The notes beneath the pieces were generated by a model. It was not told where the DNA came from. It searched no databases and was given only the letters and a program-made list of their open reading frames with translations. 64,000 bases of DNA from Escherichia coli O127:H6 str. E2348/69 (GTDB taxonomy: Bacteria > Pseudomonadota > Gammaproteobacteria > Enterobacterales > Enterobacteriaceae): assembly GCF_000026545.1 (NCBI RefSeq), contig NC_011601.1. One strand, 5' to 3'. The position numbers were made by a program, and so were the translations under genes. How positions within the stretch are numbered: the first letter of the stretch is position 1; each line of letters begins with the position of its first letter. This document shows positions 35,751 through 35,891 of the stretch, one piece after another.

Positions 35751-35891
35751 CTATGACAAACCTATGTACCCTGCTATACCAGATAATATTAAAACAACTG
35801 CGACGGCAAATTCCCCATCTTCAATGATACATTTACGGTTCATTACGACAAGCGCGACAAGTGCCAACACAACAAGAATTATAACAATCAT
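35751..35891 (-). CDS. Small hydrophobic protein (46 aa)
   Basis: ATG at 35891 with AAGGA ribosome-binding site; product MIVIILVVLALVALVVMNRKC...; below the ORF-track cutoff. Confidence 0.45.
   Translation of the reverse strand: MIVIILVVLALVALVVMNRKCIIEDGEFAVAVVLILSGIAGYIGLS

Follow-up and report, generated by a model that had tools for sequence, protein, structure and literature searches.

Escherichia coli O127:H6 E2348/69 carries a prophage whose late operon ends in a frame of only 46 codons, which raises the question of whether so short a frame is a gene and, if so, what its product might do for the phage. We approached it within a window of 64,000 nucleotides, the whole stretch of DNA analysed, to which the coordinates below refer unless a database accession is given. 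An epsilon15-like (Uetakevirus) prophage occupies this window from ~28.3 kb to its right-hand end. Its closest sequenced relatives around the 46-aa ORF are the Salmonella phages SPN1S, SPC32H, PAT1 and 65FD, at ~93% nucleotide identity.

The end of the late operon

Gene order on the minus strand matches that of epsilon15 and phiV10, running from terminase through the portal-to-tail genes and the ejection genes to the 46-aa ORF. Beyond the ORF lie, in turn, a convergent ant gene, the tailspike gene, an O-antigen acyltransferase gene and a complete lysis cassette (28360–30163) with two holin-family genes, an endolysin and an Rz-like spanin. Flanked by the acyltransferase gene and this cassette is a low-GC ORF of 335 aa (30351–31358, plus strand; GC 0.38), without a match in Pfam or PHROGs, which may represent another gene for conversion or an accessory function.

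The ORF is preceded by three large genes for internal virion (ejection) proteins of 836, 600 and 824 aa. The last of them (35902–38376, minus strand) is a homolog of epsilon15 gp17 and PhiV10p20, in the IVP-D, T7 gp16-like class, and its product matches phrog_684 ('virion structural protein', E = 0), in agreement with the annotation of its relatives. The initial annotation had placed the short frame at the end of an internal-virion-protein operon. That label is justified because gp17, the epsilon15 counterpart of the 824-aa protein, is placed in the T7 gp16-like IVP-D class by published work (PMC4819975), and the frame does close the operon, following directly on the 824-aa gene, with a tie to the virion proteins that is positional only. 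The 46-aa gene is the final gene of a ~17-kb late structural operon.

The ORF reads on the minus strand from an ATG at 35891–35889 to a TAG stop at 35753–35751 and encodes MIVIILVVLALVALVVMNRKCIIEDGEFAVAVVLILSGIAGYIGLS. The TAA stop of the 824-aa gene (35904–35902) overlaps a Shine-Dalgarno AAGGA (35903–35899), the two forming a TAAGGA at 35899–35904 on the minus strand, so that the ribosome-binding site and start codon described initially are present as claimed, with a spacer of 7 nt from AAGGA to ATG and a start codon 10 nt past the upstream stop. A 55-aa version in the program-made ORF list starts at ATG 35918. We rejected this start and took that of the 46-aa form as the conserved one, because ATG 35918 is out of frame in the phiV10 lineage, where the spacer is 9 nt instead of 10.

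The two hydrophobic segments attributed to the product were borne out. Kyte-Doolittle hydropathy gave hydrophobic stretches at residues 2–17 and 28–45 with a charged loop between them, and AlphaFold2, run with a 26-sequence family alignment, predicted a helical hairpin (H2–19 and H25–45) with a mean pLDDT of 92.

Downstream of the ORF, the palindrome and terminator that had been described were both found. The perfect 12-bp palindrome GTGACATGTCAC occupies 35732–35743 and is followed at 35730–35703 (minus strand) by a rho-independent terminator, AGGCCGC-aata-GCGGCCT (AGGCCGCaataGCGGCCT) with a T-run, which is shared, back-to-back, with the convergent ant gene; an equivalent terminator is annotated in epsilon15 and phiV10. 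RNA folding of the 3' end of the 46-aa gene returned this terminator together with a hairpin that is peculiar to this cargo and whose structure is not conserved. The ant gene itself (35441–35701, plus strand) is not part of the peptide gene: it encodes an 86-aa anti-repressor with matches to phrog_450 and phrog_1760, and it shares 93% nucleotide identity with the ant of SPC32H (SPC32H_020). Just upstream of ant, at 35401–35421, lies a LexA-box-like dyad, tACTGTatgttttatACAGtg, with its CTGT and ACAG arms 9 nt apart (canonical 8).

Evidence for a protein-coding gene

All six frames within 6 kb around the locus hold 60 ORFs of at least 30 aa. Since ORFs of such size are common here by chance, length alone is uninformative and it is conservation that counts. 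Conservation of the frame in related phages had been proposed as a check at the outset, and an intact frame of 46–48 codons was present in 34 related loci. Among 14 distinct 141-nt alleles, variable columns were distributed over the three codon positions as 20/11/34 (chi-square p = 0.002). Between the SPN1S-like, phiV10-like and 65FD-like lineages, pN/pS was 0.15–0.33, with pS reaching 0.28–0.32 and pN 0.03–0.09.

Searching 5.8 billion proteins yielded 41 clusters, drawn from E. coli, Salmonella, Citrobacter and Hafnia. Their members are 46–55 aa long, depending on the start chosen, apart from one truncated at 30 aa and a few at 48, 54 and 72 aa, and they have in common a nearly invariant NRK-G/C-IIEDGEF loop and a C-terminal SGxAGYIG (GxAGYxG) motif. 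An exhaustive profile search of 1.84 billion representatives returned six family members at 50% clustering, the distant ones 45–48 aa long, and no remote relatives of the peptide. Where contigs were fetched, the distant homologs (~50% identical) keep the length, the motifs and the place at the end of the ejection-protein operon; one divergent homolog sits behind a 1129-aa ejection protein with a very different C-terminus and a gene for a 92-aa small membrane protein. Gene finders also call the 46-aa gene in metagenome assemblies.

We observed a stop-loss allele in three IMG/VR loci, in which TAG has become TAC, with an S-to-P change just before it, and the ORF is lengthened through the palindrome and terminator to 90 aa. 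These alleles show some tolerance to change.

On the strength of the intact frame and the coding-type substitution pattern, the proposal of a small membrane-protein gene can stand, and we regard the 46-aa ORF as very probably a genuine protein-coding gene. The 165-aa plus-strand ORF at 35701–36198 had been dismissed as unlikely to be real, and rightly so: it exists in this sequence, and its frame contains at least two stops in 41 of 53 unique relatives. In the 824-aa frame, by contrast, variation is in excess at third positions, as expected.

An annotated family and a gap in one record

The gene is not new, being an already annotated family that has gone under several names. It is PhiV10p21 ('putative integral membrane protein'), SPN1S_0020 ('putative membrane protein') and SPC32H_019; in 65FD it is PIGZ_00047, in the 55-aa form, and in PAS61 and O157 typing phage 9 it is a hypothetical protein. 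PhiV10p21, SPN1S_0020 and SPC32H_019 are 85–93% identical to the peptide, are likewise 46 aa long and occupy the same place, between the ejection-protein gene and the palindrome with its terminator. The E2348/69 allele differs from the PhiV10p21 family in a few substitutions (V3, I4, V15 and C21) and otherwise in nothing material. The peptide has its own PHROG family, phrog_7892, which it matches with E = 2.9e-29 over residues 1–46 against profile positions 1–46 of 46; this full-length match is accompanied by the operon-end position after an IVP-D-class gene and by two predicted TM helices. Neither the peptide nor any of the alternative proteins described below fell into a functional family in Pfam, PHROGs, PADLOC or NCBIfam.

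The initial annotation had called the gene unlisted. This is correct of the ORF track, and likewise of the RefSeq PGAP record for E2348/69, where nothing is annotated between H4J01_RS06640 and H4J01_RS06645 (NZ_CP059840.2, 1361185–1361384); it does not hold for phiV10, SPN1S, SPC32H, 65FD, PAS61 or phrog_7892. As an ORF, the gene therefore represents a routine annotation gap in the EPEC prototype strain, listed in phage records since phiV10 was sequenced, and because the family is already annotated, the finding as first stated is an ordinary one.

A slot for exchangeable envelope proteins

We surveyed the position of the gene in 80 IMG/VR loci, each coding for a relative of the 824-aa protein's C-terminal 300 residues, together with the named phages. 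The left boundary was constant in the 80 loci: TAAGGA is kept whatever the cargo, and the next start codon lies ~6–10 nt further on, whichever gene follows. The right boundary was equally sharp, with the exact palindrome GTGACATGTCAC present in 81 of the 84 loci that had enough sequence. Between these fixed points we found at least nine unrelated cargo types. Of the 80 loci, 21 carry the 46-aa two-TM hairpin (cargo A) in the slot, 27 a 57-aa two-TM peptide with another small hydrophobic ORF behind it, and 22 a 137-aa lipoprotein. The remaining types are two further lipoproteins (126 and 158 aa), a 102-aa secreted protein that bears a signal peptide, two distinct 103-aa membrane proteins (Tyrion gp19 is one of them), and the 64-aa two-TM gp18 of epsilon15. 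All cargo types are predicted envelope proteins, whether two-TM peptides, membrane proteins, lipoproteins or the secreted protein. A match of the 158-aa lipoprotein to Cor was rejected as a clue to function, as it covers the signal peptide only.

The cargo re-assorts with its surroundings. Cargo A occurs beside four sequence classes of the right-hand anti-repressor module, and the phiV10-like right-hand class was found with cargoes A, B and C. Twelve cargo-A loci extend as far as the tailspike gene, and they fall into eight receptor-binding clusters, two of which are common to other cargoes. On the left, the type of cargo does not follow the lineage to which the ejection-protein sequence belongs. 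The 46-aa gene also stands apart in base composition, with a GC content of 0.38 (GC3 0.34) against 0.52–0.53 (GC3 0.53) for the three ejection-protein genes. Homologs of the 126-aa lipoprotein extend further afield, to the equivalent slot in a Klebsiella phage, to that slot, on the other strand, in an epsilon15-like Burkholderia phage, and to the right-hand genome end of lytic Rhizobium autographiviruses, which are podoviruses.

Because cargo swaps between fixed boundaries and re-assorts, and because the GC content of the peptide gene is low, the slot bears the signature of an accessory ('moron-like') hotspot, unlike a structural gene. The presence of unrelated exported proteins, lipoproteins among them, in the same slot of functional relatives argues against a role in the virion, and we consider it likely, judging from these comparisons, that the 46-aa peptide is accessory and not a structural or virion part. 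In our view the main value of the locus lies here, in a compact and sharply bounded hotspot beside the ejection genes of epsilon15-like podoviruses in which at least nine envelope proteins alternate; the slot and the terminator-associated palindrome are the parts that merit specialist attention.

A palindrome between stop codons and terminators

The palindrome that forms the fixed 3' boundary of the slot occurs three times in the window, where shuffled sequences predict 0.16. The second copy, GTGACACGTCAC, at 53812–53823, has one mismatch and lies between the stop of a plus-strand gene (53313–53807) and a terminator. The third, at 56018–56029, is exact; it overlaps the stop of a gp49-like gene (56026–56364, minus strand) and lies upstream of a terminator and the small terminase gene. 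The gp49-like gene adjoins the terminase genes upstream and encodes a 112-aa protein that matches phrog_536 ('transcriptional regulator') and carries a C-terminal Cys-rich CxxC...CxC motif. In epsilon15 the palindrome is found at the same three positions, and in phiV10 at two, the third being expected at the end of the linear record.

All three copies are flanked on one side by the stop codon that closes a transcription unit and on the other by a rho-independent terminator. Whatever the cargo type, its stop codon is 0–10 nt from the palindrome or within it, and the palindrome abuts the terminator stem; in several cargo types, and in the gp49-like gene, a TGA stop lies inside the palindrome. 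We rejected two candidate identities for it: it is not the repressor operator, which is ATTACC-N5-GGTAAT, and its spacing is not that of a CRP site. It had no match in Rfam, and a literature search found no mention of it. Because its flanks vary and re-assort while the palindrome stays exact, we take it to be either a functional site or a preferred recombination joint.

Expression of the gene

Our scan of 35200–36700, which takes in ~800 nt upstream of the ORF, detected no sigma-70-like promoter upstream of it, with the proviso that consensus scans may miss weak or atypical promoters. A relaxed scan (8 of 12 matches) of the family consensus for the last 240 nt of the upstream gene likewise detected no sigma-70-like promoter. 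We did observe that the last ~50 codons of the 824-aa gene (35902–36050) are less variable at third positions among 68 unique relatives, at 0.4–0.5 bits against ~0.8 bits for the rest of its last 300 codons. Such a dip might stem from a signal embedded in the gene or from recombination that homogenises the slot boundary; it was not counted as promoter evidence because a similar dip occurs elsewhere and recombination could explain it.

The operator of the prophage repressor, ATTACC-N5-GGTAAT, is annotated as a repressor-binding site in epsilon15. One copy lies at 35348–35364, between ant and the tailspike gene, and the motif is present ten times in all (0.13 expected), starting at 35348, 52594, 55942, 58370, 58432, 60739, 60756, 61480, 61542 and 61618. 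Perfect operators head the late units, at 52594 before the portal operon, at 55942 before the small terminase gene and at 35348 before the tailspike gene. Their placement points to direct control of the late units by the prophage repressor, and expression of the 46-aa gene is probably confined to lytic growth. Because a repressor operator stands at the start of the operon, expression in the lysogen, classically the state in which exclusion operates, is unlikely, and any exclusion would have to act during lytic growth.

Possible functions of the peptide

The explanation that we favour overall, with a probability of roughly 45%, is that the 46-aa ORF is a real gene, an accessory allele of the slot, and that its product blocks the entry of related phages at the inner membrane. 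The AAGGA that overlaps the stop of the last ejection gene would drive translation of the peptide, which would be made together with the late proteins and would insert into the inner membrane as TM1, the NRK-G/C-IIEDGEF loop and TM2. There, in an infected or induced cell, it would hinder DNA entry by incoming related phages, and the other cargoes of the slot would likewise hinder related-phage entry at the envelope.

Within this explanation, the entry-blocking or superinfection-exclusion function is suggested by the position of the gene and the nature of the alternative cargoes, and we put it forward tentatively. In its favour, gene order agrees with the P22 map (7-20-16, sieA, mnt/arc/ant, tailspike, O-antigen conversion). 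[quoted passage not shown] Known exclusion proteins generally work at the envelope: SieA in the inner membrane, Imm and Sp of T4 by opposing DNA injection, and Cor directed at FhuA, an outer-membrane receptor (PMC11436027). Counting against the proposal, the peptide lacks homology to SieA, and in orientation and regulation the two genes are opposites. Against a role shared by the whole slot, the other cargoes are directed to more than one envelope compartment, and a single common function need not be assumed.

The peptide could instead serve the ejection apparatus, as a membrane chaperone or anchor for the hydrophobic ejection proteins or as a co-packaged minor component. It adjoins the three internal virion genes, the stop/ribosome-binding-site junction it shares with the last of them suggests co-expression, and its position is kept in divergent phages. 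We nevertheless find a part in ejection unlikely, as epsilon15 and Tyrion are functional without the peptide and have unrelated proteins in its place, and as the slot can hold Sec/Lol-exported lipoproteins, which cannot be packaged into capsids; the independence of cargo type from ejection-protein lineage and the low GC content, which points to a foreign origin, weigh in the same direction. We give much the same low credence to a modulator of O-antigen or LPS synthesis in the manner of gp22, D3 Iap or Gnarl, which would act in serotype conversion together with the acyltransferase. Small phage proteins (40–90 aa) that alter O-antigen are documented (PMC12373910) and count in its favour, as do epsilon15 gp22, an alpha-polymerase inhibitor that is itself a 66-aa two-TM protein, and the proximity of the gene to the tailspike and O-antigen acyltransferase module. 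However, the peptide has no similarity to epsilon15 gp22, it accompanies at least eight tailspike clusters across four host genera, which would be unexpected for a type-specific target such as Wzy, and the lipoprotein and secreted alternatives in the slot fit poorly with Wzy inhibition.

We think it less probable again that the peptide is holin-, antiholin- or toxin-like and affects lysis timing or membrane energetics late in infection. A late-operon gene for a two-TM peptide would suit such a role, and many holins and type I toxins are close to it in size; set against this are the complete lysis cassette elsewhere, the lack of a match between the peptide and any holin PHROG, and the lipoproteins among the slot alternatives, which are unrelated to lysis. 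Translation itself, and not its product, might be what matters, with a ribosome that finishes just before the palindrome and terminator tuning read-through into the region antisense to ant and onward to the tailspike gene. The close spacing of stop codon, palindrome and terminator stem in every cargo would accord with this, but purifying selection on the amino acids and the conserved loop and C-terminal motif would be needless for a positional effect, and we rate it lower still. Least probable of all, in our estimate, is an unexpressed or functionless ORF whose conservation reflects recent common ancestry. The ORF is very short, RefSeq omits it from E2348/69 and some alleles have lost the stop; yet synonymous divergence between lineages is ~0.3 while pN is at most 0.09, the codon-position bias is significant, and homologs only ~50% identical keep length, motifs and operon-end place (one of them behind the extra 92-aa gene).

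Returning to entry blocking, a broader form of it is that the slot is a dedicated Uetakevirus cassette-exchange site for ORF-precise swaps of envelope-targeted factors directed against superinfection or re-adsorption in lytic growth, with a functional palindrome. We hold this to be somewhat more doubtful than entry blocking by the peptide. The palindrome could in that case be a binding site for a dimeric protein of phage or host, or a recombination joint. Should the cargoes prove to be entry blockers, the slot would amount to a ready collection of small inhibitors directed at DNA delivery by podoviruses. It would also provide a second example, after P22 SieA, of exclusion aimed at the ejection machinery of short-tailed phages, and would bear on phage-therapy host range in Salmonella and pathogenic E. 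coli.

Comparison with known systems

A member of the ejection-protein set would be expected to persist with the structural genes in every functional relative, and the peptide does not: in epsilon15, Tyrion and most IMG/VR relatives unrelated proteins, lipoproteins among them, take its place. Nor does it share the marks of a holin, namely membership of a holin family and location in the lysis cassette. Epsilon15 gp22, D3 Iap and Gnarl resemble it in being small phage proteins (gp22 has 66 aa and two TM segments, Gnarl 40–90 aa), but they act on envelope polysaccharide synthesis whereas the peptide is not tied to tailspike or O-antigen type, and a pairwise comparison of the peptide with epsilon15 gp22 gave no alignment. 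T4 Imm, which excludes phages at DNA injection, is an early protein of a phage from another family, with about twice the length of the peptide.

[quoted passage not shown] It is larger, however, at 162–164 aa with three TM segments, and has no sequence similarity to the peptide (BLASTP E = 44). The sieA gene lies on the opposite strand, has its own promoter and is expressed in the lysogen, whereas the peptide gene is co-directional with the late operon.

Morons such as HK97 gp15 and lambda lom and bor also share features of the locus, and one of them, HK97 gp15, is a protein of superinfection exclusion (cited in PMC11436027). A classical moron has a promoter of its own, whereas our scans found none for the peptide gene, which starts 10 nt past the upstream stop. 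Like the peptide gene, morons are present or absent between collinear relatives, have atypical GC content, are followed by a terminator, lie inside a late operon or close it, and in many cases encode envelope proteins. Of these traits, the peptide gene shows replacement between collinear relatives, by at least nine cargoes in all, a base composition unlike that of its flanks, and a terminator immediately beyond the palindrome.
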